From an uncultured virus (IMG/VR IMGVR_UViG_3300044911_003846) (taxonomy: Duplodnaviria > Heunggongvirae > Uroviricota > Caudoviricetes), in IMG/VR virus record IMGVR_UViG_3300044911_003846: a stretch of DNA of 64,000 nt; one strand, 5' to 3'. How positions within the stretch are numbered: position 1 is the stretch's first letter; each line of letters begins with the position of its first letter. The notes below the pieces were generated by a model. That model had not been told where the DNA came from and did no database searches. It worked only from the letters and a program-made list of their open reading frames with translations. Of this stretch, positions 25,690 through 61,920 are shown in pieces. Position numbers and translations under genes: made by a program.

Positions 25690-25726
25690 CTTGATTTAGA
25701 ATACAAAGACTGATGGTTTAGGTTCT

Positions 25727-33452: not shown

Positions 33453-34757
33453 TTAGCGGCTTATTTCCTCCCAATCTAACGAAGCGTAGATATCGGCTCC
33501 GTTAGTGTCCGCTGCTGCTGCTAACGTCAACTCAAAGGGTGTGGAGGTAAAAGCATTTCTTTCAAGCTGGAACGAGAATAAAGCCTCTTTCAAGATGTCA
33601 ACCGGCGTTGATCCTTGGTTGGAGCCATTAAGAAAACCAGATGCCAATATCCGTCCACCCGTAAAACTTGTGCCAGTAATGTTATATTCAACGGAGGAAT
33701 CAGCTGCAGCACTTGTCCATGTGCCACCAGTAGTCGTTCCAGACGCTACAACCCGCCAAGAATAGTTAGCGTTGTTGGTAATACCTAAAATAGACAAGGC
33801 TGTCAAAATAATAATTGCGTCTAAACGATTCGGTGACGCTTTTAGCCGAATAGATGCCACGGGATAATAAGTAATTGCTGTAGTTAAATCGCGTGGACTA
33901 CCAATAGGCGTTTCAATTGACTGCTGAGCACCACGAAGTTCATACCCACCTTCGGAAAGAACAGACGAACAAACTTGCTTCAAGGTACTGTTACTGGCTG
34001 TTGTTCCAGTATTTTCAATTTCATACCTAAGGGGAAGCGAAGCAGTACTGATATAAGTAGAAGAAATTAAGTTAGCGTGATGAAAAACATGACACGGAAT
34101 AAATTTCCCATCAATCACGAATCCCATGCGGACAGAACCAAGCCCAAGCCACTCAACATCCATCCAGAGAATTTGGGCTTTGGTAATATTTAAAACAATC
34201 TCAGATGGACCGGTTCCATCCATCTTGTCGATATTCCAGTTTGCTTGAGCGACTCGTGTTTCTGAAAAACTACCAGAAGAAATACTGCGCTCAACAAATG
34301 ATAAGGTTGAATTATTCAGCTCAATGTACATACCATTGTCGGCACCAAAATAACCGACACGTTGTCGTAATCCGGTCTTGGCCGGTGCCATGACAAAGGT
34401 GTTAAGAACTAATAAAGATTTTCCAGGTTGATAAGAAAATACCTTGGTTGTTTCACGGTAAACCAGGGAACCGGATGTCGTTGTAACAGCAAGATCAACT
34501 AAGCCCTCACTGACTTGGAACGTAACAGTGCCACCAGTAGCGGTACTACTGTTCCACAGACCATTGTCCCTGTAACGGTGGCTGGAATCAAAAAGAGTAA
34601 ATGGATTCGAGACACGTAGACGACCAAATGCATCAGTAGCAGGACTCGGCTCCCCTGTTATCGGAGCGGTGACGGATACATTAAGAACCTGGTCGTCGGG
34701 ATTTAAAACCTTAACAACTTCGTAACGGTTCTTATCGCGCTCTAGAACAGTTGCCAC
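33453..34757 (-). CDS. Putative virion structural protein (DAFGRLRVS type)
   Basis: DAFGRLRVSNPFTLFDS, YQPGKS and LPLRYEI motifs; beta-rich. Confidence 0.65.
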   Translation of the reverse strand: MATVLERDKNRYEVVKVLNPDDQVLNVSVTAPITGEPSPATDAFGRLRVSNPFTLFDSSHRYRDNGLWNSSTATGGTVTFQVSEGLVDLAVTTTSGSLVYRETTKVFSYQPGKSLLVLNTFVMAPAKTGLRQRVGYFGADNGMYIELNNSTLSFVERSISSGSFSETRVAQANWNIDKMDGTGPSEIVLNITKAQILWMDVEWLGLGSVRMGFVIDGKFIPCHVFHHANLISSTYISTASLPLRYEIENTGTTASNSTLKQVCSSVLSEGGYELRGAQQSIETPIGSPRDLTTAITYYPVASIRLKASPNRLDAIIILTALSILGITNNANYSWRVVASGTTTGGTWTSAAADSSVEYNITGTSFTGGRILASGFLNGSNQGSTPVDILKEALFSFQLERNAFTSTPFELTLAAAADTNGADIYASLDWEEISR

Positions 34758-34807
34758 AATCTAAAATTTGCTATGCTTGGTCTAAGGCTAGCACTGAATC
34801 AATTTTT

Positions 34808-35539
34808 ATGGATAAACAGCGCTTCCATTACGTTTATTACAGCTATGAAAGCTGGGGCAGAGGATACATTGGTGTCCGGTCCTGCTACGTGAAGCCTGAA
34901 AGCGACAAAAAATACCTTGGAAGTTTTAAAGATAAAAGCTTCAAGCCAACAGAAAAAATTATATTGTGCGAATTCGAAACAAGAGAAGAGGCGGAGCAGG
35001 CCGAAATAAAGTTGCACCAATTTTTCCAAGTAGCGGCCAATCCCGACTTTGCAAATAGAATAAATAGTTCAACCGAGGGGTTCAATCGCCTAGGCGCAAA
35101 AAATAGTCTGCATGTGAGGCAAAAAGTATCAGAATCAAACAAAAATAATAAGTATTGTGTTGGGAGGAAGTTGTCCAATCAAACCAAACAGTTAATCTCA
35201 GAAAACAATAAGGGTAAGCATGACGGGGAAAAGAATCCCATGTTTGGAAAAACGCACACAGATGAAGTAAAAGATTTTCTACGAAAGAACACTAGAAAGT
35301 GGATCGAAGAAAAGGGTCATCCAATGAAGGGAAAGCGGCATACAGAAGAGAGCCGAAGAAAAATATCAGAACAGCAAAAAAAGATTAAAGTAAAACTGCA
35401 AAACATAGAGACTGGTGAAATATATGAATTTTCTTCTCAACTGGAGGCCGCTAGGGCTTTGGGGATTTATCAGGGCTCAGTGTCAAGCTTGTGTAAGGGT
35501 AAATTAAAGACCACCGGGGGATGGAAGCTCGCTGTGTAA
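34808..35539 (+). mobile_element. Free-standing GIY-YIG homing endonuclease with NUMOD3 repeats and C-terminal HTH
   Basis: YVYYSYE..GRGYIG.R, Y.GS, NPMFGKTHTDE, HTEESRRKISE, F.SQLEAARALG; AT-rich. Confidence 0.85.
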
Positions 35540-40140: not shown

Positions 40141-40448
40141 CAGACGACAAAGCCACTGGTCACCTTGAGGCACTGGCGTTTCTCGTCAGCTCATTCACCG
40201 ACAATGGCCGGAGCCTGAGGGCATTCACTTCGAACCCACAAGAGTTGGCCATTACAATCCTGACCGCTGGCCTGCTGTCGAACAGCAAGCTGATGCTGCA
40301 ACCGGAAGAAGCAGTAAAAGCGGCATTTGACATCCACGCCAGGATTCAAAAGCACGTTGGCAATTTTCAGCAGATGACCTTCGCGTCAAATATTGAGAAT
40401 TGCTTTAACCAGCAACACCCTGAAGTTGGGGAAGTTGAGGGTGATTGA
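40137..40448 (+). CDS. Hypothetical protein
   Basis: Coupled ATGA overlap. Confidence 0.55.
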   Translation: MTDDKATGHLEALAFLVSSFTDNGRSLRAFTSNPQELAITILTAGLLSNSKLMLQPEEAVKAAFDIHARIQKHVGNFQQMTFASNIENCFNQQHPEVGEVEGD

Positions 40449-40809
40449 AGGCCGGGCCTTCTCTCCTCAGCAGCCGAATTGATCCGTGGGTCGCTTCGAA
40501 GGCGTACTTCAGACTGTGGCACGCAGATTCTGGATCAGTGTGGTCACCACAGGTGAACGCATCAATCGATGCATATCCGTATTCCGGCCAGGAATGGAAG
40601 CTAAGGTGAGATTCCGAGAGAAGGGCAACTGCAGTTACCCCCTGGGGTTGAAATTTATGGGTGATCAGCCCCAACAAGGTTGCGCCAGTGGCTTCTGCGG
40701 CAGCGGTCAGTGCTTCTTTAACGAAGTCTTCATCATCTAAAAGGTGGGGATTTCCCCCTAGTAACTCGTATATCGCGTGTTTTCCTACAACCTTGGGGAC
40801 CTCATACAC
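40405..40809 (-). CDS. speD: S-adenosylmethionine decarboxylase proenzyme
   Basis: GKH, HKFQPQGVT, LLSESHLSFHSWPE (pyruvoyl cleavage site E/S) and D.FTCG. Confidence 0.95.
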   Translation of the reverse strand: MYEVPKVVGKHAIYELLGGNPHLLDDEDFVKEALTAAAEATGATLLGLITHKFQPQGVTAVALLSESHLSFHSWPEYGYASIDAFTCGDHTDPESACHSLKYAFEATHGSIRLLRREGPAFNHPQLPQLQGVAG

Positions 40810-40914: not shown

Positions 40915-41838
40915 ATGCCCCCTGCAGTGCTTGAAAAAGGTGCAAAAATTCTGGCGGGAGAAGAACTAGGGAGCAAAATTCATACAAAGTATGCTGCCGA
41001 CAAAGATTATCGGCAGTTCGTGGATTACAGATCTGAAGGCCCTACCAGGATTGAAAAGTACGGTCATCGGCACTACCGTACACCGTTCGGAGATCTTCCG
41101 TCGACCACGTCCATTCTCGGGGAAACATCGGGAAATAAAGCATCTTTGGAACGTTGGGCTGCTAAAAATCCCGGCGGTCGTGAAGCTGCAGCAGCACGTG
41201 GCACGCGGCTTCATAAAATGATGGAAGATTTTTTGACCGGTGAAAATAAAAATCCGATAATTGATGACCAAGAAATTGCCGAGTTCTGGGAGGGTCTTCC
41301 AGAGAATTTAAGCAAGCTTGGTCGCGTAATCTGGGCGGAAAACCCCCTAGGTGGAGCATACCCTTGGACCATAGGAGAAGATGGTATATCTAGGGTTTGG
41401 CATCCAGGGGTACATGAAACGGAGACATGGGGTTTTGTAGGCGCTCCGGACATTGTGGCCGAATATAAAGGCAAAATTGTACTTGGCGACCTGAAGAGCT
41501 CAACTGGCCGCTATTTCGCAAAACACCCAGGCCCCGATTGCCCTAAAAATGAATACGGCATGCGTCGCGCAGGTTTTTGGAAATATACCAAGTGCATGTT
41601 GCAGCTAGGATCATATTCTTTGGCCCTGGAATATACGTGCAATTTAAAGCCTGATATATTTATGATTTTTTGTCAAACCCGAGAACATTCTCAAGTTTTT
41701 GCAGTACAAGGTGGGACGATTAAAAAATATCAAGAAAAGTGGCTTCAAGCGGTGGAAAAATATTATACGGAATGCCTACCAAAACTTAAAGAAGGTTGCT
41801 TAGGTTTGGAAACCGAGGGGGAAAAAGAAAGCCAGTGA
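40915..41838 (+). CDS. PD-(D/E)xK exonuclease
   Basis: PSTTSIL, RGT.LH, G.PDIVA...LGDLKSS, QLGSY. Confidence 0.8.
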   Translation: MPPAVLEKGAKILAGEELGSKIHTKYAADKDYRQFVDYRSEGPTRIEKYGHRHYRTPFGDLPSTTSILGETSGNKASLERWAAKNPGGREAAAARGTRLHKMMEDFLTGENKNPIIDDQEIAEFWEGLPENLSKLGRVIWAENPLGGAYPWTIGEDGISRVWHPGVHETETWGFVGAPDIVAEYKGKIVLGDLKSSTGRYFAKHPGPDCPKNEYGMRRAGFWKYTKCMLQLGSYSLALEYTCNLKPDIFMIFCQTREHSQVFAVQGGTIKKYQEKWLQAVEKYYTECLPKLKEGCLGLETEGEKESQ

Positions 41839-42734
41839 ATCACTATATTTACTATAGCTATGAAGAAAATGGTAGGGGTTATATCGGCTCGAGATCATGT
41901 GCATGTTCCCCAGAAGATGACGATTACTTCGGATCGTATAAGGATAAAACATTTAAGCCTAATAAAAAAATAATCCTCGCTACATGTGAGTCAAAAGAAC
42001 AAAGATATCAAATGGAATATTTTTATCAGAAGCTGCATAATGTAGTTGAAAACCCTCACTTTGCAAATAGAGCATTTCAGACAACGACGGGTTTTAGTAG
42101 GCTCGGGTTGAAAAATTCCGAAGAAAGTAGGAAAAAAATGAGTCAATCTAGACGAGGGCGGCCGAGCGGAATGCTGGGTAAAAAACACAGCAAGGAAACT
42201 AAAAAACGTATAGCTGAGTCAACGAGAGGAGTTCCATGCCCATCCAGAGGTCGTAAATGGACACAAGAACGTAAGCAGAAGCACTCGGAAAACTTAAAGG
42301 GCAAAAAAGGTGTAGTACATACAGAGGCAACAAAACAGATTATTCGGGAAAAGCTATCTACGGTAACATGTTTGAAAAATATAGTCACGGGTGAATTTAA
42401 AATATTTCCATCGCAAACAGCTGCGGCCAAATTTATAGGAGTACCACAAGGTGCAATTTCAAGTTTAATTACTGGTAGAGCAAACAGGATAAAAGAATGG
42501 GCAGCTGCTGATCAAAACGGGGATTTGATCGTAAGAGATGTAACAATGGATAGAAAAACAAAGCCAATAAAATTATTGAACGTTGAAACGGGTGAAATCC
42601 GGGAATTTAAATCGGTAAAAGAAGCTGCCCAAGCGTTAAATGTATGGGATTCCACAATCTCTAAAATCATTCGAGGACGGCAACTGGTTGGACATGTTGT
42701 TGCCCCAGAGTCAGACCCAACGGACTCGAACTAA
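41835..42734 (+). mobile_element. Second free-standing GIY-YIG homing endonuclease (NUMOD3 plus two HTH modules)
   Basis: HYIYYSYEENGRGYIGSR, paralogous to 34808; GTG start overlaps the exonuclease stop; AT-rich. Confidence 0.85.
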
Positions 42735-42864: not shown

Positions 42865-45453
42865 GTGACGACTGCCACCCCGGAACCACAACGACCCAGA
42901 AAGCACCTGAGAGCGGGACAGATCGACCTTGATCTGATCCCGATCGACTGGGCGTTGACCCCTCTGAACGGCAAGCGTGCATATGTCGCAGGTTGGACTC
43001 AATCTCCGTATTCGATTGAGCAGATTCAACGGGAACTTGAGGAAGGAAGAGCAACCGGTATTGGCCTGCTGACAGGACAATGGAGTAATGAAGGCGGTCT
43101 GATTTGGGCAGATATTGATGGTCCTGAGGCGATTCCGGCTTTGGAAGAGCTGGCCGGTGGACCGATTGATGTTGTCTTCCCACCGACGCTGACGATCTCA
43201 TCCGGTAAGGAAGGTCGCATGCGGATGCTGTATAGCGTCCCTGCGGCGAAAATGTCGTTGCTGCCGGACAAGGCGACGATCAAAATTGGGATTCCGTCGT
43301 TTGAAATCCTGTTCCGCTCCAGGCAGGGGGCGATCATGGGCTCCCACCCGGAAACCGAGGGCTATTTCACAACTGCCCATGGTGGATTTGAGTACGCCAA
43401 AAACCCACCGGAGATGCCGGATTGGCTTTACCAAGCCATCGCCAAAGCCTTTCCGACCAACAAATACCGTAAACCTGTGACCGGTGGGATTATCACCCAA
43501 CAGGTCAACATCAGCTACGAAGAGGGGTCTAAATTCCAGGTTGAAGAGATCCTAAACGAGGCTCGGGTCTACTTAGCCCACCTTGATCTTGAGCGGGCTG
43601 TCGATTACGAAGAGTGGCTGGCCATCGGTATGGCCCTCCATCAGGTTGACGACTCTCTCCTTCCGGATTGGGTGGAGTGGTCTGCGCAGGCTCCCAACTT
43701 CCAGTCTGGTGTTTGTGAGGACAAGTGGCGGACATTTGAGCGTCTGCCTGGTGGCCCCAGCCCCGAAGGTGCTCGTGGCCTGCAAACACTGCGGGCAAAG
43801 GCCAAAGAGGACGGCTTCCTTGAGCTTGGTGGCTTTGTCGTGGAGTCACCAGAAGTCCTGGCGCAGCGGGCTGCTCAACTCTTTTCGGACGATAACGAGA
43901 TGCCTCCCATTAACCGGGGGATGTCCGTTCAAGATGTGGTCCGCCAGCTCGTCGGTGAACCTGACGAAGAGGATCGCCGCGAAATTCAGCAGCGGGCAGG
44001 TGGTAAAGGACAACCGAAGACCCCGCCAGCGTCCTACTTGGCCGAGCAGGTCACCGGGATGATGATGGAATGGGGTTGGCTGTATGACCCCAAATTCGAC
44101 ACCTTCATGTTCTACCAAGATAAGAAGGGGACTTGGCGAAAGGAAGATCACTCAAGTGAGTATCGTCATGCCGTGCAGGACCTTTTTGTCACCGAACGTG
44201 GGATCCAGACTCCAGGGGGCTTCACCTCTCACTTGATCGCTGACGTCACCAATCTGACTAAGGCTTACCTCTGCCACAGCTATTGGGATGATGACACGGA
44301 TCGCCTGGCCTTCCGTAACGGCGTACTGGAAGTCAGCACTGGTGAATTCCTGGAGCACGACAAGGAGTACTACATCACCTGGGGTCTGGACTTTGAGTAC
44401 GATCCCAGCGCTGATCCTGGTCCGATCATCGATTGGTTAAACCGTACCCAGTATGGTGACCATGAGAGGGTTCAGGTGTTGCGGGCGTGGCTCCGGGCCT
44501 GTCTCTTGGCTCAAGGTCATGAACTCCAGCGGTTCCTCGAGGTGATTGGCCCCGGCGGTCGGGGTAAGTCCACCTTCGCCAACCTGTGCTGCGCCATGGT
44601 CGGCAGTGGGAACTACGCCAGCACCACCCTCAATCAGCTCGAACAGAGTCGGTTTGAAGTGGCCTCCATCAAAGGTAAGCGTCTGACGCTGATCAACGAT
44701 TCGGAGCGTTACGGCGGTTCCGCTCAGATCTTCAAGGCCCTGACCGGTGGTGACAATCTCCGCTTTGAGGAGAAAAACAAGAATGTCGGTGAACCGTTCG
44801 TGTACACCGGCATGGTCATGGTCTGTGCTAACGAGCCGATTCAGACTACGGACAACACCTCCGGGTTGAGCCGCCGTCGCCTTACCCTCGAATTTAATCG
44901 CCCGCTTTACGACAAGAGCTCGGACGCCAAGGAGATGATTAAGCTCGATCAGGGCATCGTAAAGGGCTTATGGAAGAATTATTTACCCGGCTTGGTGAAC
45001 TGGGTACTGCAGATGAGCGAGCAGGAAATGCGCGAATACCTGCTGGATACTTACGAAAAGGTGCCGTCGCTTAAGCGGGTGCGTAATGAAATCTTGCTGA
45101 ACAGCAACAACCTGGTCGAATGGCTGCAGTCGGAGATCGTTCTCGACGATAAAGCCGTGACCGCTGTCGGTAAGAAGATTCCCGCTGCTAAAGATGCTCA
45201 AGAACGGTACTGCAACAGCAAGTATCACCTCTATGCCAGCTACTGCTCCTATTGTGAGGACACTGGTTCGAAGCCAGTGGGTCAGAAGCGGTTCATAGCG
45301 CTGGTGATGGATTGCTGTAAAAACCAGTTGCAGCTTGAAGGTGTTCGTAGCTTCTCGAAAGGAGGGCGACCGTTTGTTAAAGGTCTTGCGATCCGGGCTT
45401 CTGATGCGAAGTACGAGAAGTATCCGACGGTGCTCCCAGAGGGGGCAGATTAG
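42865..45453 (+). CDS. Primase-helicase (Prim-Pol, PriCT-2, D5-like SF3 helicase)
   Basis: GIGLLTG...DIDG, YEEWLAIGMALH, F.NG, GPGGRGKST, KALTGGD and RR motifs. Confidence 0.92.
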   Translation: MTTATPEPQRPRKHLRAGQIDLDLIPIDWALTPLNGKRAYVAGWTQSPYSIEQIQRELEEGRATGIGLLTGQWSNEGGLIWADIDGPEAIPALEELAGGPIDVVFPPTLTISSGKEGRMRMLYSVPAAKMSLLPDKATIKIGIPSFEILFRSRQGAIMGSHPETEGYFTTAHGGFEYAKNPPEMPDWLYQAIAKAFPTNKYRKPVTGGIITQQVNISYEEGSKFQVEEILNEARVYLAHLDLERAVDYEEWLAIGMALHQVDDSLLPDWVEWSAQAPNFQSGVCEDKWRTFERLPGGPSPEGARGLQTLRAKAKEDGFLELGGFVVESPEVLAQRAAQLFSDDNEMPPINRGMSVQDVVRQLVGEPDEEDRREIQQRAGGKGQPKTPPASYLAEQVTGMMMEWGWLYDPKFDTFMFYQDKKGTWRKEDHSSEYRHAVQDLFVTERGIQTPGGFTSHLIADVTNLTKAYLCHSYWDDDTDRLAFRNGVLEVSTGEFLEHDKEYYITWGLDFEYDPSADPGPIIDWLNRTQYGDHERVQVLRAWLRACLLAQGHELQRFLEVIGPGGRGKSTFANLCCAMVGSGNYASTTLNQLEQSRFEVASIKGKRLTLINDSERYGGSAQIFKALTGGDNLRFEEKNKNVGEPFVYTGMVMVCANEPIQTTDNTSGLSRRRLTLEFNRPLYDKSSDAKEMIKLDQGIVKGLWKNYLPGLVNWVLQMSEQEMREYLLDTYEKVPSLKRVRNEILLNSNNLVEWLQSEIVLDDKAVTAVGKKIPAAKDAQERYCNSKYHLYASYCSYCEDTGSKPVGQKRFIALVMDCCKNQLQLEGVRSFSKGGRPFVKGLAIRASDAKYEKYPTVLPEGAD

Positions 45454-45592
45454 GTCCCGGATCTCGACCTGTTTTCAGGATTGTTTCCGCTCTGTGATAA
45501 AAGGGTGAGTCAGTTTTACCGGCGCTTTTGAGGGCGTCTCTGACTTTCACCCAATTATCGTAAGTATGTGCGTCGATCTGACGTCACCGTAT

Positions 45593-45639
45593 AACAACTC
45601 TATAAATTTAAATCAATATTTTTAATTTATAGAGTTGTT
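45593..45639. repeat. AT-rich perfect 16-bp inverted repeat
   Basis: AACAACTCTATAAATT-N15-AATTTATAGAGTTGTT between convergent genes. Confidence 0.85.
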
Positions 45640-45660
45640 GATACCTTTGTCAGGATTAAC

Positions 45661-45837
45661 TCACTCGGCCAACTCTTCAACCTCTTCTTTGGCTTCAGGA
45701 TCAGGTGCGAATTCCAGACTGTCAACTGCAGCTTGAACCAGCTGGGCGGACATGCCGATCAGGTTGCCGTCGCCGGTAGCACGGGCAGCAGCAAAAGAGT
45801 TGATGGCTTCAACGAGTTCGCGTTTGGTGCAGGGCAT
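45661..45837 (-). CDS. Small protein downstream of a tail fibre (58 aa)
   Basis: Manual ORF MPCTKRELVEAINSFAAARATGDGNLI... Confidence 0.65.
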   Translation of the reverse strand: MPCTKRELVEAINSFAAARATGDGNLIGMSAQLVQAAVDSLEFAPDPEAKEEVEELAE

Positions 45838-45923
45838 TGCTCTATTTGATTTACACCAAAGTTAGCATATTTACTGCCCAACACAATTACGGTCAACCGT
45901 TCAAACTGGATTAGTGAGTAGGA

Positions 45924-47420
45924 CTACGACGCCTTGAGGGAGGCAACTTCAGCTTTCAGAGCCTGCAGTTCAGCAATCGTTTCTTGCAGAGCAGCGGTCA
46001 GCAGCGGCACCAGCTTCGACTGATCAATGCCTTGGTAGACGGGGCTACCATCAGCATCTATTTGATCTTTGAACCCCCCTGCCGCCTCTGGAACGACTTG
46101 TTGAACTTCATGAGCCAGGAAACCATCGACATCCGGCGCTTTTTTGGCATCTACAATCCAGCTAAAGCGAACAGGGTTGAGCTGGGATAAACGCTCAATG
46201 GCGTTTTGAAAAGGCGTTATGTTTTCTTTTAACCTGTAATCAGACGTTGTGTCATAAGCGATTGAAGTTGAGGATGCTCGCCTTACTTGACCTACCCTGG
46301 TACCAGTAGAGCTGCCAAAATCAATGTAAATGGCGTTATTGCTGTTATCCGTTGTGCTTAAAGCGAGACCACTTGCACCATTGAAAAAGTCTCCATGAAT
46401 ACGAATCCTTCCGCTTGAAGACATGATGGCGCCAGAAGTGCCTATACCTATAACACCACCGTCTGGTAACGAACAAATACCATTACTCGCAATCCTCATC
46501 CGCTCCGTCGGGCTGCTCGCTCCATCGGCGGTAGTGGAGAACACTAGGCGGCCTGGATAATCATTCGTTCCAGCGTTTGCATCTGCCTCGCAACCGATTA
46601 AACCAAACGTATTTCCAGCATTGTCATTCCAGCTAATGTTTCCAATTCCTTCTCCAGAGGTGATGTTGCCGCCAGCAGCAGCTTCTCCTCTTTGAATTGA
46701 AAAGTTACCGCCAGCTGTTGCATCAGCAGGCTGACCTTGAACTACGAGTTTTGCATATTGACCAAAGCCGCTACTAGGACTCGTAGACGTGCCAACTAAC
46801 AGGCGTCCCGACGTGTCGATTCGTGCTCTTTCGTTGCTATTTGTAATGAACTTAAGCGGATGATTTGTGCTGGTACCTAAATCCATCCGACCATCGCCAA
46901 AAGCAGCAACAAATCCGGTTACAGACGCATCCGAGTTACGAAGATAGACAACGCCACCATTGCCAGTTCCGCTACCTCGAATATCTAAAGCCGTGCCGTA
47001 GCCCAATCCATCAGCAGGACTAGTAGTGCCAATCCCTACGTTGCCTCCGACAGGATTAAGAATTAAGGATTGGGTGGCGTTGCTTGAAGTGTTTTGTGCT
47101 TGAATCCACGGTGAGCCACCGGTGGAGCCAATACCAAACATTAAACGATTATTGGTATCCGTAGCTGCTTCAACTGTGATTCCAGCATTGTTTAGCGTTG
47201 TGGAGCCAGTAGCGCTGGCGTTTGCAAAGTTGACTCTGTTAACCGTTAACCGAGATCCAGGGCTACTAGTCCCCAGACCTACCCTGTTATTGGCAGCATC
47301 AACGTAGAGCGTATTGCTGTCTAAATTAATATTTCCACTTGCATCAATCTGCAACGCCGTTGCGGGTGCAGAAGGGTTGAGATTTAAACCAGAAACTAAT
47401 TGTGCCTTCGTCTGAGACAT
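45924..47420 (-). CDS. Tail fibre protein 2 with C-terminal peptidase S74 intramolecular chaperone
   Basis: NRVGLGTSSP, GNVGIGTTSP, GRLVFSTTADG; SDYRLKENI...GFLAHEVQ...IDQSKLVPLL. Confidence 0.88.
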   Translation of the reverse strand: MSQTKAQLVSGLNLNPSAPATALQIDASGNINLDSNTLYVDAANNRVGLGTSSPGSRLTVNRVNFANASATGSTTLNNAGITVEAATDTNNRLMFGIGSTGGSPWIQAQNTSSNATQSLILNPVGGNVGIGTTSPADGLGYGTALDIRGSGTGNGGVVYLRNSDASVTGFVAAFGDGRMDLGTSTNHPLKFITNSNERARIDTSGRLLVGTSTSPSSGFGQYAKLVVQGQPADATAGGNFSIQRGEAAAGGNITSGEGIGNISWNDNAGNTFGLIGCEADANAGTNDYPGRLVFSTTADGASSPTERMRIASNGICSLPDGGVIGIGTSGAIMSSSGRIRIHGDFFNGASGLALSTTDNSNNAIYIDFGSSTGTRVGQVRRASSTSIAYDTTSDYRLKENITPFQNAIERLSQLNPVRFSWIVDAKKAPDVDGFLAHEVQQVVPEAAGGFKDQIDADGSPVYQGIDQSKLVPLLTAALQETIAELQALKAEVASLKAS

Positions 47421-47614
47421 TTAAATGCCTTTCTACTTGCTCTTATCACTCATTTTACAAGAGCAAGACTCACACTGACCGCACGATTTTTTTGCCCACG
47501 TTTTATCCCCTCTGATTGGTTCGGTACCATATTCAAAATCATCATATTCAGGTAGATTACGCAACCAACGAGCAAATTCCTCGAGATGTTTGCGAATCAA
47601 CTGTGTAGGCATTG

Positions 47615-49008
47615 TTACACGAACCCGTAACGTTCCCGTATCCTACGCATTCTATCCTGCATTGCAGGGGAAGACGGGATGTACTGATGGTTCCGTTTAT
47701 CCATCTGACCACGAACCCAATCCTGGAACTGATCCTGATCCATCGGTAGGTTGGGATCCTGGCCAACAGGGATGCCCTGGGCAACTAACGGACCACCTGC
47801 CTGCTGCGCGTAATTCGTCTGCATACCAAAATCGGGGACGTCAGTACCAGCTTGCTGATAACGGTTCACCCCAGCAATGAATTCCTGGAGGTAACCAAGA
47901 CCAGCAGCATTCTTCACCGGACCCTCTTGTTCAGGTTCCTGCGGCTGCTGTGGATACTTCGGCTTTGCCCAGTCTGGTGCTTTGTAAACATCGTAAGGGC
48001 TCCGAGGATTCGAAGTCTCCTTAGAAATCATCGGGAAGTCATTGTCCATCATCATGATCAGAACATCCCGCGATCACGTTTGACGGTGCTGATCAGTTCC
48101 TCGGCCCGCTGATTGAGAGTGGTCGGAAGCGAAGGCATACCTTCGCCGGTAGTCTTGGCAAACTGGAAAGGCATAACACCAGCAAATACACCGGACACCT
48201 TGTTGCCCTGCGTAGTCCAAGGAGCGGGAACAGAATTAGCAGCCACGGAGAAACTCTCGTCTCCAGGGGGCTGAGGTGCCGCACCTGCATAGGTAACACC
48301 AGGGGTGGCTTGACCTGCAGCTTCCCGCTTACCCATTTCCTTTGCGTAGAGACGCTGGGCAAGCATCGGGTTAGCTTCAGCCCACTTGGCCAGATCAGAA
48401 CCCTCCTTATAACCAAGGGCTTGCTGGATCTGCGGCATCTGGGCACGACCCATGGCGCTCTCAGCGCGGTAGAAAGCGGACAGCTCTTCAGGGGTCTTAC
48501 CAGGTGCTGCGGTTTGTCCCGCTAACGCCTTCATCGCTTCGACGTCCTTCGGGGCAGCAGCACCACGAGAGGCAGTACCAAAGTACTGATCCATCTCAGG
48601 GGTCTTGAAGTAGCGCTCGAACTGACCTTCGGGAGTGAAAGCAAATGGTTTCGGAGCGTATTGGGAAGCAAGGGCACGCGCTTCATCGCTGCGACCATCA
48701 CCACCGATGTCGGCTGCTGCGATTTGCGACTGCATAAACCCAGGTGAGTAACGACCGGTCAGATCCCCTTGAAGAGGATTAGGACCCAAGGTTCCAGCGG
48801 CAGCAGGACGACCAATTCGGGAAAATAATTGACCTAATTGCTGCATCCCATACTGCAATCCAGTTTTCGGGGCACCGGTGGCTCCAGCGGCTCTACGCAG
48901 CTGTGACAACCCGTACTGAAAACCACTTTGTTGAGTTGGATCTGGACGAGCACCTAAAACGCTTAATCCATATTCAAGCCCGGTTTGAGGGACGTATTTA
49001 GGAGCCAC
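47615..49008 (-). CDS. Two putative virion proteins (47615-48055, 48058-49008)
   Basis: Ala/Gly/Gln/Pro-rich and co-oriented with the tail fibre; 48058 has three G(L/F)(E/Q)YG repeats. Confidence 0.5.
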
Positions 49009-49263: not shown

Positions 49264-49544
49264 TGAGGGGATTGAAGCTAAATCGGGATTAAGGGTTGAG
49301 ATCCGTTGCGAGAGCTGGGTTGTGAATGGACAACCAATCAAGACCGGTGGTAGCCGCTAGACATTAATCCCTTGTAAGTTTGGGTTAGTAATTGGTAGTA
49401 CATAAAATATACACCCATTTAGTAACCCAAACTCATAAGAAAGTTATTAAAAGGCGGGTAAACCGGTTGTGATTGGTCGTACATCAATTCCCTTGACAGC
49501 ACTTGGATGTTAGCGTAATCTTCTAAAACCGTTCGATCCCCTCA
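49264..49544. repeat. Long imperfect inverted repeat (~280 bp)
   Basis: Paired segments include TGAGGGGATTGAA/TTCGATCCCCTCA, ACCAATCA/TGATTGGT, ACCGGT/ACCGGT, CCGC/GCGG and AGTTTGGGTTA/TAACCCAAACT; loop near 49400-49410. Confidence 0.85.
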
Positions 49545-50692
49545 TGGACATCGAAACCCTCTTCGCTGATCTGAGCCTCCTTCCGTCAGACCAGATTGCT
49601 TTTGTCAGAGCGTTTCAAGTTGGTCTCAAGCTGTATGGAGAGGACAAGTGTTGGCAGCTGGACCGGACTAGCCACATCGCTTTCGATGGCTTCAATACGG
49701 CCCATCCAGGCAGCCTCTTCTATCGCGGTGTCGATGCCAGACCGTTGATCTTGGCTCTGTCTGGGCGCTTCCAGGGGGATGGAGAGGTGGCTGTCCGTCG
49801 ATCCATCTGTCAGTCCCCTCACTGCCTTAACCCATTGCACTACTTCTGGGGGACCAGGAGCCAGGTGATGTTGGAGAAGCAGAAGGCGCGGACAAAGAAC
49901 AGCCTGTCTGTGGATTTGATCGAGAAGTTGCGGCGGGGGCGGCAGGAAGGGAAGCGGGTATTGGATCTATCGCGTCAATACAAGGTGCCGTATCACACGG
50001 CGAGGCGAATCTGTGCGGGTGAGACTTATGAGAATCTAAATGAGATTAAAGAGGAGGTGCCGGCCGAGCTGATGTGGGAGCTCACTCATGAAATTTGCAA
50101 GCAATTGACAGCTCGCTACCCTGAAGAATCAAAGGAATTCAACCTGGCAATTCAAGTGTCCGAATCCCTCGAATGTCCCTGGCACCGCAAAGGCCTCCCC
50201 GGTCACAAAGGCAACTTTGGACTCATGGGAGAATGTCTGGACTGCATGGAAGAGATTAAAAACGGTCGCTGCTCTGTCGATGTCACCAACTTCGACATGA
50301 ATTGGTACTGGAACGTCAAGCGATTTTGGGAACAGGTCGATATTCGTGGTGAAGACGAGTGCTGGCCTTGGCTCGGCGCCAGTCGGAAGGACGGTACCGA
50401 ATCGACCGCTTACTTCCCAAGTCCATTTCACTCAGGAAAAGTTCATTCCGCATCCAGGGTGGCCTTTTGGTTAAGTCGTGGCTATACCGGGAAGTACAGG
50501 GTTTTTGCTCGCCCAGAGTGCGAAAAGTTTTGTTGTAACCCAAAACATTTACACATTCGTGAGATTAAGGATCTAGCTGAACCCGCTAGTATGGGGGAAA
50601 TAAAGCTGACCCATGGAAACATCTTCGAGTCCTATCGAAAAAATCTGTCAGAAAAACAGTCAAGTCCTCCCAACAAATTACCATCTTCCTGA
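49544..50692 (+). CDS. Protein with two His-Me/HNH zinc-binding-loop domains and a central HTH
   Basis: CW...CQSPHCLNPLH; LSRQYKVPYHTARRIC; FWEQVD...ECWPWLG...ASRVAFWL...CEKFCCNPKHL. Confidence 0.75.
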   Translation: MDIETLFADLSLLPSDQIAFVRAFQVGLKLYGEDKCWQLDRTSHIAFDGFNTAHPGSLFYRGVDARPLILALSGRFQGDGEVAVRRSICQSPHCLNPLHYFWGTRSQVMLEKQKARTKNSLSVDLIEKLRRGRQEGKRVLDLSRQYKVPYHTARRICAGETYENLNEIKEEVPAELMWELTHEICKQLTARYPEESKEFNLAIQVSESLECPWHRKGLPGHKGNFGLMGECLDCMEEIKNGRCSVDVTNFDMNWYWNVKRFWEQVDIRGEDECWPWLGASRKDGTESTAYFPSPFHSGKVHSASRVAFWLSRGYTGKYRVFARPECEKFCCNPKHLHIREIKDLAEPASMGEIKLTHGNIFESYRKNLSEKQSSPPNKLPSS

Positions 50693-55064: not shown

Positions 55065-55835
55065 TCAAGTATCTATCCCCGGACGCGGCGGAGATCCTAG
55101 ACCGGTGGGTTTCTCATTCCAAAGACGGAAAAAGTGCTTCAGAGCATGTCCAGACGGATCCCAGCTCAGTATCTTTCCTTCCAGATACTCAATCGCCTTG
55201 ATCTGATTATGGACTCCCGTGTAAGTCTCGGGTAGGTTCAACAGGCAAACTTTGAGTTTGCAATTGTGTTCTGTAAAGGTAGGGATCTCCTTGTCTGGAG
55301 CTAAAAACGTATCCAGCTCTGCTCGCCTTCGGTTGATAATCGATTCACCACCAGAACGCCACATTCCATTGATGTATGGGCTCCACTCACGGATGATGTC
55401 TTTTTTGCTGGCGTGAGAGTTGATCAGCCTCAGCAGACGTGATTCCTTGAAGCCCGTCACCCCTAGGTTGTGGGCAAATGACAGGATGGCCGCCTTTCGG
55501 TTCTTGTTTAGAGGCACAAAAATATACGGTTCGATCTGTTTGGTAAATTCTTTTAGATCCTCGATTAGCTGCTCTTCAATCTGCTTTTGAGTCGCGACTT
55601 CGTGGTATCCAACCCAGTGCTTGTTTATTTTCTTGCTACCGTATCCAATGCGCCAGATGTCCTCTCCGTATTCTTTGTATGAACCAAAACGCCCCATACC
55701 TAAATTGGTACGGGGCTGCGTGTGGCGTTTAATTAGTTCAACTCCTTTCGGAGTGAGCAGCGGGTACTCACTCCAATCTTCAGTATTCTTAAGGGACGAC
55801 GACGCTGCCAGTGTAGGAAACTTCAGAATAGCCAT
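55065..55835 (-). CDS. GH24 lysozyme-like protein lacking the catalytic Glu
   Basis: G.ELIK, W.IGYG, VPLN.N...AILSF..NLG...F..S.LL...N, RRRAE. Confidence 0.7.
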   Translation of the reverse strand: MAILKFPTLAASSSLKNTEDWSEYPLLTPKGVELIKRHTQPRTNLGMGRFGSYKEYGEDIWRIGYGSKKINKHWVGYHEVATQKQIEEQLIEDLKEFTKQIEPYIFVPLNKNRKAAILSFAHNLGVTGFKESRLLRLINSHASKKDIIREWSPYINGMWRSGGESIINRRRAELDTFLAPDKEIPTFTEHNCKLKVCLLNLPETYTGVHNQIKAIEYLEGKILSWDPSGHALKHFFRLWNEKPTGLGSPPRPGIDT

Positions 55836-56737: not shown

Positions 56738-57532
56738 ATGATCAGCAACCAACTCGTCGCGGAATTTATGAAATCAGCGGTTGGTGGCGTGAGTAGGACG
56801 CAACTGATTAGGACCATGAGGGAGCGCCATGGACTGGGGGATGGCGAAATTGATCAGGTCATCCACCTGTGCTCATTTAGAAGCCGGCCGTCCAATATTA
56901 ATTACAAAGATTTTCACGGCGCCAAGATCACCAAAACGGGGAATCGGATCTTTTATCCGTTTACTCAAATTTATACTTACGACAACATTTTAACCAAAGA
57001 TGAATGTGAGGCCTTGATAAGGCTCATTGATACTCGCTTGAGACCTTCAACTGTCTCCGATGACGCAGATTCATGCTTGGTTTCAGACTACAGAACTAGC
57101 CAAACCTCAGACCTGCACTACTTTGACGACCCTCTTTACCTGGAGCTAGACAGGAGAATTGTAGACACTTTAGGGCTCTATAGTTTTCTCGGTGAGATTA
57201 TGCAAGCACAAAAATATGAGCCTGGTCAATACTATAAAGAGCACTGGGACTTCTTCATGCCCACCACAAAGGAATACAAAATTTACTGCGAATGGATGGG
57301 GCAGCGAACTTGGACCACTATGGTCTATCTCAATGATGTTGAAGAGGGTGGTGAAACGTATTTCAAGCACCTAAATCTTCATGTAAAGCCCAAACAGGGA
57401 ATGCTGGTCGTCTGGAATAATCTCTATAAAAATGGACTACCCAATCTAAAAACTATGCATGAGGCGTGCCCGCCCCTCAGTGGAAACAAATATGTAATTA
57501 CTAAGTGGTTCCGCAGCTGGAGCTTGATTTAG
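56738..57532 (+). CDS. Prolyl 4-hydroxylase-like 2OG-Fe(II) oxygenase
   Basis: RTS, YEPGQYYKEHWD, R..T.MVYLNDVEEGGET.F, HEACP...G.KY.ITKW. Confidence 0.9.
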   Translation: MISNQLVAEFMKSAVGGVSRTQLIRTMRERHGLGDGEIDQVIHLCSFRSRPSNINYKDFHGAKITKTGNRIFYPFTQIYTYDNILTKDECEALIRLIDTRLRPSTVSDDADSCLVSDYRTSQTSDLHYFDDPLYLELDRRIVDTLGLYSFLGEIMQAQKYEPGQYYKEHWDFFMPTTKEYKIYCEWMGQRTWTTMVYLNDVEEGGETYFKHLNLHVKPKQGMLVVWNNLYKNGLPNLKTMHEACPPLSGNKYVITKWFRSWSLI

Positions 57533-57896: not shown

Positions 57897-58361
57897 CTAG
57901 GCGTCCAGGTTGGCTTTGAGAAGCCACTGGAACTTCTTGTGGACCCGCCCACGCTCAACAGCTAAGTCAAGCGTCAGTTGATCGCCAAGGGTCTCAGCCA
58001 TGGCTGCTAAATCCTGGAAGCGGTCAGCCAGTGCGTTTTGATTGGCTGCCAACTGGCTGATGATCACCTCTTGCTTGAAGCAGTCTTCCAGAGGGACGGA
58101 GGGGAGGTTGGAATAGGTCAGGTCTTCGACGGTCTTGGGCGTCGCAATGTCCAGAGAGCGGATATGTTCCGCGATTACGTCGAGAGCTTCCTGCATCTCT
58201 TCGTAAATCATTTGAGTCAGCGTATGGATTTGGTAAAACTTGCTACCCATCAAACCCCAATGGACAAGCAGGGTTTGCTGATACAGGTGCATCGAATCAC
58301 GCAGGCACTGAACCAGGTGGGAGTAGCAGGCGCTTGTCTTGTTTGTTTGGGGTTTTGCCAT
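57897..58361 (-). CDS. dps: Dps (ferritin-like DNA protection protein)
   Basis: HW...G..F..IH......Y......D.IAE.IR.L; D..T.DL...H.K..WLL. Confidence 0.9.
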   Translation of the reverse strand: MAKPQTNKTSACYSHLVQCLRDSMHLYQQTLLVHWGLMGSKFYQIHTLTQMIYEEMQEALDVIAEHIRSLDIATPKTVEDLTYSNLPSVPLEDCFKQEVIISQLAANQNALADRFQDLAAMAETLGDQLTLDLAVERGRVHKKFQWLLKANLDA

Positions 58362-58366
58362 GGGTT

Positions 58367-58666
58367 TTACCACTTAACTTTGTCGGCCCAATATGCGGCT
58401 GAGCCTTTACCTTTTGCGATATTTTTTGCGTGCCTAGCTTTAAAACTAGCACGTTTTTTCTTCATTCTTTCCGATTCACCTTCTTTAGGTTTACCAGCCG
58501 TTTCAGCTCCTTGTTCACCGAATCTAATTATCTTTTCTCCTCCAGGTACATCATCACCACACGCTCGAACAACGTGTGATTTTGTCGGATGATCTGGTGT
58601 TCGTACGGGCTTGTTACATTTCAGCCGTTCAACAGCCAGCCGCTTGGCCTTCGCTCGGTCAGACAT
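58367..58666 (-). CDS. Small basic phage protein (SFKARH, DUF6321-like)
   Basis: KSHVV.A...KIIRFG...RASFKARH...AYWA...W. Confidence 0.65.
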   Translation of the reverse strand: MSDRAKAKRLAVERLKCNKPVRTPDHPTKSHVVRACGDDVPGGEKIIRFGEQGAETAGKPKEGESERMKKKRASFKARHAKNIAKGKGSAAYWADKVKW

Positions 58667-58668
58667 GA

Positions 58669-58848
58669 TCAAACGATAATCTCTCGATTCATCGCTTTAG
58701 TTTTAATATCAGTTGCCTCTTCTCCTTGCGCCAAGCGCTGGAAACCTGAAGGGATTCGCGCCCGCTGAAGCTCCTGAATGGCTTTTTCTACGTAGCCATC
58801 CAGAAACTCTTTGCCGTTAGGTCGCGACCCAGCCGATGTAGAAATCAT
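58669..58848 (-). CDS. Small hypothetical protein (59 aa)
   Basis: Manual ORF MISTSAGSRPNGKEFLDGYVEKAI...; fills the gap between neighbours. Confidence 0.45.
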   Translation of the reverse strand: MISTSAGSRPNGKEFLDGYVEKAIQELQRARIPSGFQRLAQGEEATDIKTKAMNREIIV

Positions 58849-59227
58849 TGGAGATGTAAGGAACCGCCTGTTCCGTCGATGGGAGCTTGATGGAACAAGG
58901 TTTTTGCTCCATCCATTTATTTAGTTTATCAAGTCTTTTCTCGCAATAGATTGGTAAATCTGGAGTAAACCAAACGTTGACTAACGTACTGGCTTTGGAT
59001 CGATTGCAGTTTGAACAGGCTGCAGCCATGTTCCAGCGAACATTTTGACCGCCCTTGTGTTTAGGGATAATGTGATCGATTGTGGCAGTATGTTCACTGA
59101 GTTGTTTATCGCAATAAGCACAGCGCCATCCCCAGGCTTCAAAGATGTGCTGCCTAAATTTGCGACGCGCAAGTTTCGGAGTTAAAACAACGAGATTGAC
59201 CAGGAGATCATCTTCGCAGTTGAACAT
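58817..59227 (-). CDS. HNH endonuclease (McrA-like)
   Basis: CAYC...TIDHIIPK.KGG....N...C..CN..K. Confidence 0.88.
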   Translation of the reverse strand: MFNCEDDLLVNLVVLTPKLARRKFRQHIFEAWGWRCAYCDKQLSEHTATIDHIIPKHKGGQNVRWNMAAACSNCNRSKASTLVNVWFTPDLPIYCEKRLDKLNKWMEQKPCSIKLPSTEQAVPYISNDFYIGWVAT

Positions 59228-59298: not shown

Positions 59299-59384
59299 GG
59301 GAACGTGGCGGAATCGGGATACGCTGCGCACTTAAAATGCGTTGGTCTTTGACCTTGTGGGTTCAAGTCCCACCGTTCCTACCA
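59299..59384 (+). tRNA. tRNA-Leu(TAA) with encoded CCA
   Basis: Acceptor GGGAACG/CGTTCCT, anticodon arm GCGCA-CTTAAAA-TGCGT, long variable arm, GTTCAAGTC T-loop, ACCA end. Confidence 0.92.
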
Positions 59385-59459
59385 CGGGGTGTAGCTCAGC
59401 TTGATTAGAGCGGTCGCTTTGGGAGCGACAGGCCGAAGGTTTGAATCCTTCCACTCCGA
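59385..59459 (+). tRNA. tRNA-Pro(TGG), no encoded CCA, atypical T-loop
   Basis: CGGGGTG/CACTCCG acceptor, GTCGC-TTTGGGA-GCGAC anticodon arm, T-loop TTTGAAT. Confidence 0.85.
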
Positions 59460-59831
59460 TTATGAGGCGTGTTCAATTGCGTGGCAGTTGGCGCATAGAA
59501 CGATACACTTCGCGGCCTCTTTCTGGATCGTATCGATTCCAGCTCCGTTTGAGACCAGGTCAGCAATGTTGGCTTCTTTATTGCCGTCATGGTGATGGAA
59601 GTGGAGGGCGCGGTGGTCGTCAAAGCCGCACTTGGAGCAGGTTAACGTTTTCTTCCACTCAACAAAGATGGCGCGAATAACCAGCCGCCTCTCATTAACG
59701 TTCTTTCCGTGACAGGTGCGACAAATATGGCGGTAATACGCCTTCCCTCCCTTCACTCCAGCATTGGCGAAATTCTTGATGTCGAAGGTCTCTAAACAGC
59801 TTTTACACTGTCGCGTATGGCTATTAGACAC
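59460..59831 (-). CDS. HNH endonuclease with zinc fingers
   Basis: CxxC...CxxC; CSKCG...L.FHH...K...I...EAAKCIVLCANCH..EH. Confidence 0.85.
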   Translation of the reverse strand: MSNSHTRQCKSCLETFDIKNFANAGVKGGKAYYRHICRTCHGKNVNERRLVIRAIFVEWKKTLTCSKCGFDDHRALHFHHHDGNKEANIADLVSNGAGIDTIQKEAAKCIVLCANCHAIEHAS

Positions 59832-60364: not shown

Positions 60365-61612
60365 TCACTTTAAGCGTTTAAAGTCGTACCAGCACCAGCC
60401 AGAGCCGCCCCCACCAACAAAGAATCGAGGGTTTAAGTTCTTGAAGCTGTAGCGAACATTGCGACCGGCGACGGCACCGGTTGAAGCCCAACCACCGTTG
60501 ACCAGGTCCTGTTCACCGTAGGGGTCTTGGACTAGCCAATAATCCCGGCCATAACCAGTAATAACCACAAAGTGGCCGCCACCAGAAGGGTCAGAAACAG
60601 TTCCATGATGAAGAATGCCGGCAACAACAGGGAGGCCCGAGTCAATTTGTTTTTTAACGTCATCCGAGTCTGCAGTTTGAGTAAACTTAGCGGATACACC
60701 TAACTCTGCCAAGGCTTTAAAATGAGGGTTGCGATAAATGGTGTCTCCGTACTTATTAACGATCTTCAAGTAGTCAGTATCGTCGTTAATACCGGGCGTA
60801 TCTAAGTACTTCAGACACATTGCAATACTGCTCGTCTGACACTGGCGCCAGCCTTCAGGGCCGTTATCCTTTTGATGAAAGTATGGGAAGTTACGGAGAT
60901 AACGGAGATCACCGTCAATCGCGTAAGGATGGATCGTTGTCTTAGTGACAAGTCCGTCCCAGTGATCGTCGTAGATCCACCACTTACCAAGCCCGAAGCC
61001 CATTTCTACGTAGCTATGCTTGTCCTTACGATCAATAACAAAGCAATTTCGAATTGTTCTGCCTTTGTAAATATTGGCTTTTTCGTCACGACCTAACTCG
61101 ACGGAAGGAACGAGTCGTTTTTTGAGCCAGGTATTAAATTTAGAAGTTATATCAATTAATCCAACCTTTACTTTCGGGGCTTCGCTGCAAAATAATTCAA
61201 CCTCTGCGGAACGGCGGCGGCTCAAGCCCTCAAGGACTTTTCCGTCACCTTTATTCCACCTTGGCAGCTCTTCGGCAGCGACAATATTAGGGTTTTCTCC
61301 ATTATTAAGACGTTTAACTAACGTTGAACCCTTAAAAGCCTGGGTTCCGACGTTAAAACAGAAGGAGACAAGTGCATCAAATTGATTTTGATTTAAATCA
61401 ATGGTGACGTAATTTAATACTGCTTGCTCGAATTTAATGAGATCTTGCTTGAGAAGTGCGTCGGCTTCTTTCTCGGTGATTTTTGTTCCAGCAAGCACGT
61501 TTCCGGTGTGACCGTAGCCAATGGTAAGTACACCGACAGGACAGAGGTAGCTGGTGAGGCTTAGTCCCTCGAAAGATTTAATTAATTTGATGCCAGTGGG
61601 CGAAATTTTCAC
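60365..61612 (-). CDS. Endolysin: GH24 lysozyme fused to a C39-like cysteine peptidase
   Basis: IKSFEG...TIGYGH, NQNQFDALVSF.FN.G, GL.RRR.AE; C-terminal QCQTSSIAM...GHFVVITGY...VQDPYG. Confidence 0.9.
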   Translation of the reverse strand: MKISPTGIKLIKSFEGLSLTSYLCPVGVLTIGYGHTGNVLAGTKITEKEADALLKQDLIKFEQAVLNYVTIDLNQNQFDALVSFCFNVGTQAFKGSTLVKRLNNGENPNIVAAEELPRWNKGDGKVLEGLSRRRSAEVELFCSEAPKVKVGLIDITSKFNTWLKKRLVPSVELGRDEKANIYKGRTIRNCFVIDRKDKHSYVEMGFGLGKWWIYDDHWDGLVTKTTIHPYAIDGDLRYLRNFPYFHQKDNGPEGWRQCQTSSIAMCLKYLDTPGINDDTDYLKIVNKYGDTIYRNPHFKALAELGVSAKFTQTADSDDVKKQIDSGLPVVAGILHHGTVSDPSGGGHFVVITGYGRDYWLVQDPYGEQDLVNGGWASTGAVAGRNVRYSFKNLNPRFFVGGGGSGWCWYDFKRLK

Positions 61613-61901: not shown

Positions 61902-61920
61902 CGATGGTTAGTGAGTAGGA

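Follow-up and report, generated by a model that had tools for sequence, protein, structure and literature searches.

Two kinds of 15-nucleotide (nt) word recur in the tail-fibre genes of a lake cyanophage, represented here by 64,000 nt of DNA from an uncultured virus (IMG/VR record IMGVR_UViG_3300044911_003846; this whole stretch is called the window below). Words of the first kind lie within the coding sequence at the starts of fibre modules and probably act as the cores of conserved DNA islands for homologous exchange of these modules, whereas the word of the second kind, TAGTCCTACTCACTA, is a separate gene-end linker with a role as a joint. Both kinds have the form TAG-N9-CTA. A reading made from the letters of the window only (the sequence-only reading) had taken five such words in one fibre gene as a single candidate site-specific shuffling system; it had merged two different things, the coding words and the gene-end linker.

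The window belongs to the S-EIV1 lineage and holds three dispersed tail-fibre genes, as found by PHROG and Pfam scans (Table 1). A small, letter-perfect vocabulary of words is common to the module starts of fibre genes from unrelated cyanophages. Mosaicism begins exactly at these words and at the invariant 15-nt tag that ends the cassettes, so that fibre mosaicism can be measured as defined crossover points. Tail fibres decide which cyanobacteria can be infected, and fibre diversification therefore shapes phage–host dynamics in lakes and estuaries.

Coding words and repeat units

Fibre 2 matches PHROG tail-fibre families (for example phrog_18345, E = 3.7e-69). Its four shaft units are arranged in tandem and align in register at 18–34% identity. 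Each has a word at its start, and the spacing of the word starts is 81, 80 and 84 codons. At the C-terminus a Peptidase_S74 intramolecular-chaperone domain [amino acids (aa) 393–446; PF13884, E = 3.9e-12, above the curated cut-off] is followed by a coiled-coil tail; the domain was not found by Pfam in fibres 1 and 3. A search of the PDB by sequence with fibre 2 as the query gave no match.

The five fibre-2 sites of the sequence-only reading are all present where it had placed them. Its claim of a single register is correct as well: the four that are coding all lie in frame 1. Their codons are GTA GGT CTG GGG ACT AGT, GTA GGG ATT GGC ACT ACT, TTA GTT GGC ACG TCT ACG and CTA GTG TTC TCC ACT ACC. 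The TAG arm is made of a codon ending in TA and a codon starting with G, and the CTA arm of ACT or TCT and a codon starting with A. The word encodes the first β-strand-like motif of the repeat unit, h-[GVA]-h-[GST]-T-[TSN], which is better conserved than any other peptide of the same unit. The peptide-anchored unit consensus from 71 distinct related fibre open reading frames (ORFs) is ...TERLRIDSSG-x-VGIGTTSP...L.V. In the repeat alignment the unit-3 word (LVGTST) is displaced by one codon, to a later position than the words of the other units.

Fibre 3 had been described as carrying the same classes in the same order, which is correct in part. The word at 62804 is identical to that at 46532, but the word at 63323 is identical to that at 47024 and not to that at 47267, which has no copy in fibre 3. 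The site at 63113 does match at 14 of 15 positions but reads AAG..CTA and is no true TAG-N9-CTA. The copy at 61909 is identical to that at 45912 but lies outside fibre 3, at the stop codon of a 78-aa ORF two genes downstream. The segments between the sites, which had been called largely unrelated, are diverged homologues: the fibre-2 and fibre-3 proteins are 39% identical over 228 columns (E = 1e-21). An alignment of the sequences upstream of the three fibre genes showed no shared 5' motif.

The reported excess of sites over chance is real. The window holds 16 matches to TAG-N9-CTA, against 6.77 ± 2.53 in shuffled sequences, and 16 was reached in 0 of 100 shuffles. Fibre cassettes and their ends account for ten of the 16, and the remaining six correspond to the chance level. 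When synonymous codons were shuffled, the expected numbers were 0.64 for fibre 2 (4 observed, P = 0.0017), 0.75 for fibre 3 (3 observed, P = 0.028) and 0.32 for fibre 1 (0 observed).

The fixed synonymous codons seen in the two fibres are also found in homologues, as judged by the spellings of VGIGT and VGLGT and by the usage of GTA. VGIGT is spelled GTA GGG ATT GGC ACT in 34 of 70 occurrences (expected fraction 0.0017), and VGLGT has a single spelling in 13 of 17. A second common spelling of VGIGT, GTA GGT ATA GGT ACA, is without the CTA arm. The V of V-G pairs is encoded by GTA in 57 of 77 pairs inside the motifs versus 60 of 339 elsewhere (Fisher P = 5e-21). The enrichment over a codon-shuffled null, proposed earlier as a check, is about four-fold in the related fibre ORFs: TAG-N9-CTA occurs 186 times in the 71 ORFs (181 in frame 1), against 44.8 ± 6.2 (maximum 65) in 300 synonymous shuffles, and none of the 63 other arm triplets ranks above TAG. 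This excess is due to five recurrent exact words with 23–39 copies each. Their order along the gene, 5-4-1-2-3, is kept in 39 of the 44 ORFs that have at least two words. A set of position-specific words, conserved at the nucleotide level at the starts of fibre modules, is supported by these results.

Table 1. Positions of the fibre genes, words, islands and linker copies in the window
Feature	Position	Strand	Description
Fibre 1	25727-27190	+	Tail-fibre gene, 487 aa; PHROG; intragenic TAG-N9-CTA = 0
Fibre 2	45924-47420	-	Tail-fibre gene, 498 aa; four ~80-aa shaft repeat units
Fibre 3	62409-63917	-	Tail-fibre gene, 502 aa; words at 63377, 63323, 63113 and 62804
Two small ORFs	61921-62399	-	81 and 78 aa; separate fibre 3 from its linker
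Word class 4	47267-47281	-	TAGGTCTGGGGACTA (coding strand); VGLGTS; start of unit 1; 23 copies in 71 related fibre ORFs
Word class 1	47024-47038	-	TAGGGATTGGCACTA (coding strand); VGIGTT; start of unit 2; 39 copies in 71 ORFs
Word class 2	46784-46798	-	TAGTTGGCACGTCTA (coding strand); LVGTST; start of unit 3; 35 copies in 71 ORFs
Word class 3	46532-46546	-	TAGTGTTCTCCACTA (coding strand); LVFSTT; start of unit 4; inside the longest island
Fibre-3 word, class 5	63377	-	VAISTN
Fibre-3 word, class 1	63323	-	
Fibre-3 word, class 2	63113	-	14/15
Fibre-3 word, class 3	62804	-	
Class-1 island	~47015-47046	-	Around the VGIGTT word
Class-2 island	~46784-46820	-	Around the LVGTST word
Longest island	46491-46556	-	PGRLVFSTTADGASSPTERMRIASNG; holds the class-3 word 46532-46546 (LVFSTT)
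Linker copy	27188-27202	+	Exact; TAG = fibre-1 stop
Linker copy	45912-45926	-	TAGTCCTACTCACTA; TAG = fibre-2 stop
Linker copy	61909-61923	-	Exact; TAG = stop of the 78-aa ORF; next gene (61647-61901) begins 7 nt on

Conserved islands and mosaic breakpoints

The words are the cores of DNA islands of ~24–66 nt, which are conserved near letter-for-letter in lake cyanophages while the DNA between them diverges. The islands reach 9–41 nt past the 15-mers, and this conservation extends asymmetrically into the flanks. Between fibre 2 and fibre 3 the nucleotide identity is 0.70 within islands and 0.40 between them; at identical residues the same codon is used in 32 of 50 cases within islands and in 21 of 76 between islands (P = 9e-5). 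In four lake metagenomes, contigs with at least 90% identity pile up only on bins that hold a word. The depth in run X14 is 51,687 in the bin of the LVFSTT island, compared with 49.9 and 485.4 in the adjacent bins.

Lake contigs diverge from the window at 46491, 46546, 46784, 46801-46820, 47015/16, 47046, 47258-60, 47281 and 47321, with frequent loose ends at 47281. The commonest breakpoints, 46491 and 46820, are 41 and 22 nt off the words, i.e. at island edges. The joints of lake contigs jump 206–238 nt, from one island to the next. Clustering of breakpoints at the sites, which had been put forward as a check, was found in related viral contigs using high-scoring segment pairs of at least 120 nt and at least 90% identity: of the 20 internal ends, nine are no more than 10 nt away from a word, versus 9% at random, a clustering that is inflated because local alignments tend to stop on conserved blocks. 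The Logan contigs are short unitigs, so that their ends are partly assembly breaks and the breakpoint measure is inflated further; the relatedness of the 71 fibre ORFs to each other also weakens the breakpoint statistics.

These observations are consistent with a mechanism in which the islands would supply just enough identity for homologous, in-register crossovers, and in which fibre modules would be swapped between co-infecting phages in the fashion of T-even fibre and adhesin genes. If the identity of the islands suffices for crossovers, a dedicated recombinase is not needed. Module shuffling is thus supported as homologous recombination and not as a site-specific system. None of the three outcomes that the sequence-only reading had named as refuting its proposal was observed.

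The islands might instead be kept by selection on the peptide only, for folding, trimer register or translation speed, with the breakpoints as alignment artefacts. The rank of the motif as the best conserved peptide of the unit agrees with this, as do the behaviour of local alignments, which end on conserved blocks by construction, and the small sample of just 20 endpoints. The fixation of synonymous positions far beyond codon usage argues against it. So does one lake contig that follows the window for 549 nt at ~95% identity and departs from it precisely at 46491, an island edge. The fibre gene of S-CBP4, a phage of another family, has 77 nt at 93.5% identity to the LVFSTT island and is otherwise unalignable, which is also difficult to reconcile with peptide selection. 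We consider this explanation unlikely and infer that recombination, not peptide selection alone, keeps the islands identical.

The gene-end linker

The gene-end linker is in our view the most interesting piece. The 'stop' word of fibre 2 had been counted as a member of the coding series but is a separate, intergenic gene-end linker, and the earlier tally of it was incomplete, as a third exact copy at 27188, at the fibre-1 stop, had been overlooked. The three exact copies of TAGTCCTACTCACTA in the window are at the 3' ends of all three fibre cassettes and have unrelated flanks. The last gene of the fibre-3 cassette is the 78-aa ORF at 61921-62157 (phrog_20196); members of its family also terminate at the linker elsewhere (contigs L014, L061 and L062).

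An exact-match scan of viral contigs located the linker in at least 120 viral stretches, belonging to two unrelated phage lineages. In 85 of 93 distinct contexts the linker is preceded, at a distance of 0, 3, 4 or 8–10 nt, by the end of an ORF of at least 80 codons, and in 52 of the 93 its own TAG is the stop codon. Most of the ORFs that end at the linker close with the coiled coil of S74-type fibres. Each genome has 1–3 copies. In 596 Gb of prokaryote genomes 47 exact matches were found, scattered over phyla; one was in a metagenome-assembled genome of Nostocaceae and none was in a Synechococcus genome.

Clustering of the 94 distinct linker contexts gave 35 upstream and 61 downstream groups, which occur in 82 combinations. 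In pairs of contexts that share one side, identity ends 0–2 nt (31 pairs) or 0–3 nt (80 pairs) past the 15-mer, and the positions after the 15-mer are not conserved. The alignment of one lake contig stops exactly at 45926, the linker edge, and contigs L067, L089 and L093 start within 0–2 nt of the linker. In both phage lineages the linker is the exact joint between upstream and downstream blocks that are freely re-assorted.

Only two one-mismatch variants and no two-mismatch variant of the linker were found in 514,512 nt of related loci, an estimate that is biased low because most of these loci were found by exact match. Among 18 fibre genes ascertained by protein and with a visible stop, the exact 15-mer was present at or just after the stop in five. 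One further gene of this sample has a one-change variant (stop TAA), one has a four-mismatch variant and 11 have nothing similar. As a unit, the linker is thus either present or absent.

Among cultured phages the exact linker was found in two podoviruses with a T7-type RNA polymerase, S-CBP1 (L201; TAG is the fibre stop) and S-CBP4 (L211; 6 nt after a TAA), both of which infect Synechococcus sp. CB0101 and also have island words. The linker is also found in phages of the S-EIV1 type without a T7-type RNA polymerase. Partial or variant forms are present in S-CBP42 and S-RIP1 and, viewed by host, in phages that infect the marine WH7803 and WH8101. S-EIVl has no linker; its matches all have three mismatches, the level of the reversed-pattern control. 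Given this distribution by host, the linker may mark a shared host gene pool. Its presence in cultured phages of the same host makes plain homology and a dedicated reader distinguishable by experiment.

Further linkers share this build but have another core, TAGTCACCTTCACTA in five places and TAGTCATTCCCACTA in two. TAGTCACCTTCACTA occurs as a second linker 50–121 nt after the main one in L016, L043, L066, L079 and L110 (also G004:59478-59613 and 15249-15313). The sequence between the two contains tandem 11-nt units (CTTGCTCGGTA). These contigs also have a stretch that is complementary to a part of the main linker. In the window a 58-aa ORF without a family match (45661-45837, minus strand) follows the fibre-2 linker at a distance of 74 nt, before a convergent primase gene. 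In L053 and L139 the sequence downstream of the fibre-2 linker recurs behind another fibre C-terminus, which is Cys-rich. In the library of papers searched, the linker 15-mer had no match in either orientation, and two 11-mers matched unrelated primer lists only.

Possible functions of the linker

The linker could primarily be a cis signal: a 3'-end, processing or antitermination element, a nick site of the phiKMV/tf type or a promoter of the T7 group. Its role at junctions would then be a by-product. The strict orientation, the position at gene ends and the invariance of the linker all suit a signal of this kind. In a minority of contexts an intrinsic-terminator-like hairpin and T run follow ~10–30 nt after the linker. 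The linker itself is without a self-complementary stem or hairpin and has no match to an Rfam family. Its distance to the next start codon ranges from 0 to ~300 nt, and no fixed distance was found. A scan of 45300-47700 for promoter and terminator consensus sequences gave nothing above shuffled sequences and nothing at the linker.

Pairing with ribosomal RNA was rejected. The longest Watson–Crick run between the linker and cyanobacterial 16S rRNA is 6–7 nt, compared with shuffle means of 6.6–6.9 (six of ten fetched 16S loci), so that complementarity is at the shuffle level.

A T7-type promoter is disfavoured. The linker agrees at 12 of 15 positions with the T7 promoter core, but the T7-type RNA polymerase family PF00940 is present in two of five linker-bearing genomes and absent from the other three. 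The 1–3 copies per genome and the unconserved start region also argue against a promoter, and the terminator, where present, is downstream of the linker.

The consensus of the phiKMV nick sites is CGACxxxxxCCTA/CTCCGG, with which the linker shares CCTACTC (PMC3517423, from the part of the paper available). As described there, nick sites of phiKMV-like phages and of phage tf are strand-specific conserved words of ~9–19 nt with few copies per genome, and in both respects the linker is similar (PMC3517423). The phiKMV nicks are on the non-coding strand, however, and the linker motif is on the coding strand; for nick sites, the accessible part of that paper mentions no tie to gene ends or mosaic junctions (PMC3517423). 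On balance, a signal in cis as the primary role of the linker is possible but doubtful.

We therefore call this 15-nt element a gene-end linker, one that is portable, one-directional and invariant. Its role as an exact mosaic joint is demonstrated; its cis function is putative. Most likely the linker has a putative role in cis where the fibre transcript or gene ends and also serves as a 15-nt crossover point, a mechanism and function that we infer from its invariance, its gene-end position and its exact junctions.

PeSLs (promoter-early stem-loop cassettes) of T4-type phages consist of a σ70-like promoter and a terminator stem-loop, for which promoter and terminator activity was shown (Arbiol et al., 2010; PMC2839356, in the part consulted). 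In function, the linker comes closest to the PeSL cassettes. From what is accessible of that paper, both are short conserved intergenic units at the joints of shuffled modules, and the PeSLs act there as crossover points (PMC2839356). Unlike the PeSLs described there, the linker has 15 nt, lacks the promoter and stem-loop, forms no hairpin and starts with the stop codon of the upstream gene.

Evidence for and against a dedicated enzyme

The sequence-only reading had proposed a system like lox or att sites, with shared palindromic arms and class-specific cores. The arms comprise just 3 nt, with 9 nt between them (in two classes, 4 nt with 7 nt between them), and derive from the codons; arms of 3 nt cannot specify binding. 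The lox/att analogy is unsupported in view of these arms, the breakpoints at island edges, the lack of words in fibre 1 and the failure to find a recombinase. On the last point the earlier reading was correct for the window: in a Pfam search of its 72 ORFs there was no match to a tyrosine or serine recombinase or to a transposase. PF00589 and PF00239 are absent from G002 and G004, which are complete genomes of word-carrying relatives. Among the five genomes compared, PF00589 occurs in the two podoviruses only and PF00239 in none.

Cre/lox and att sites, the Gin, Cin and Min inversion systems and the R64 shufflon have recombinase-binding arms of ~10 bp or longer and inverted site pairs; their alternative segments are oppositely oriented, and the gene for the recombinase is adjacent. 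The fibre words resemble them as short repeated sites at the joints of constant and variable adhesin parts. Unlike in these systems, neither the long arms nor the inverted pairs, opposite segments or adjacent recombinase are present here: all words of a gene have a single orientation and a single frame. Diversity-generating retroelements also diversify phage receptor-binding proteins. They differ from the present case in that the 72 ORFs of the window gave no Pfam match to a reverse transcriptase (no search was aimed at a template/variable repeat pair).

A dedicated enzyme might nevertheless swap modules with the same core, either as a site-specific recombinase or as a nuclease or nickase that recognizes an interrupted palindrome (TAG-N9-CTA or TAGT-N7-ACTA). 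Such an enzyme would account for the TAG...CTA frame that the intergenic linker has in common with all five recurrent coding classes, the first rank of TAG among the 64 arm triplets and the unit-3 word, which attains the same form from a shifted codon position. It would also account for linker junctions that are exact at both edges without flanking homology and for the further linkers of the same build. The lack of a recombinase, transposase or reverse transcriptase match among the 72 ORFs of the window speaks against it, as does the absence of both recombinase families from G002 and G004. The islands extend well beyond the words, with many breakpoints at island edges, the second spelling of VGIGT has lost the CTA arm, and outside the fibre cassettes the pattern is at the chance level. 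We consider an enzyme of this type, in essence the proposal of the sequence-only reading, very unlikely. A related and equally improbable proposal is that the 15-nt words constitute an addressing system of five position-specific coding classes and gene-end linkers, which would be read by a putative phage or host enzyme such as a nuclease or nickase leaving core-specific ends. If true, it would provide a register-preserving, position-specific swap of fibre modules, and of whole cassettes, between unrelated cyanophages of the same host.

Conserved islands for homologous module exchange, together with a separate gene-end linker at the joints, remain the probable explanation, but several points weigh against it in addition to the biases in the breakpoint and variant counts given above. 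The TAG/CTA frame shared by the five coding classes is not fully explained. The non-coding linker has the same TAG-N9-CTA form, and even TAGT-N7-ACTA, and the unit-3 word arrives at it from its displaced codon position; paralogy of the repeat units explains most of the shared form, not all. A length of 15 nt is short for efficient homologous recombination, and the near-total invariance of the linker points to a putative sequence-specific reader.

Comparison with T-even fibre genes

Recombination at conserved motifs in the fibre and adhesin genes of T-even phages was reportedly described by Tetart et al. in 1996 and 1998 (cited by Trojet et al., 2011). The islands of the window conform to the same pattern: motifs conserved at the DNA level surround divergent segments, and exchange junctions lie in or near the motifs, with alignment bias as a caveat. 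In the T-even long-tail-fibre and gp38 adhesin genes conserved motifs are mixed with hyperplastic segments (Trojet et al., 2011; PMC3157838, available in part). The present fibre genes are like these in the mixture of motifs and hyperplastic segments and in having no dedicated recombinase, as far as the accessible text of that paper goes (PMC3157838). Unlike the T-even motifs, those found here start regular ~80-aa repeats and are spelled identically across unrelated cyanophage lineages and lake communities. They also share the TAG...CTA frame and are known from sequences alone.

Other features of the window

The large terminase subunit TerL (1929-3452) is 66% identical to TerL of Synechococcus phage S-EIVl and 67 and 52% identical to those of the complete uncultured genomes G002 and G004 (80 and 86 kb), respectively.

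The window encodes a PD-(D/E)XK exonuclease, a single-stranded DNA-binding protein and several homing endonucleases, which makes general recombination functions and DNA breaks plausible, with no tie to the words. Six free-standing genes of the homing-endonuclease type (HNH, NUMOD) are at 27822-28169, 34751-35539, 41796-42734, 49544-50692, 58817-59227 and 59460-59831. One of the six lies ~630 nt downstream of the fibre-1 linker. Genes for tRNA-Leu(TAA) and tRNA-Pro(TGG) adjoin at 59299-59459 (plus strand) and were the only Rfam matches in the whole window at gathering scores. The tRNA-Leu(TAA) reads TTA, the Leu codon in two conserved fibre words.

The region 9908-25700 (~16 kb) contains small ORFs only (100–225 aa), nearly all without a Pfam match; the exceptions are DUF7227 (10831-11505) and a helix–turn–helix protein (24180-24674). 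Three genes are of auxiliary type. An S-adenosylmethionine decarboxylase (speD-like; 40405-40809, minus strand) is on the strand opposite to its neighbours, and the other two encode a 2-oxoglutarate–Fe(II) oxygenase (56738-57532, plus strand) and a ferritin/Dps-like protein (57897-58373, minus strand). Two lysozyme-family genes are present on the minus strand (55065-55835 and 60365-61612). The second of these, which comes after the 84-aa ORF that begins 7 nt beyond the third linker copy, is fused to a Peptidase_C39-like domain.

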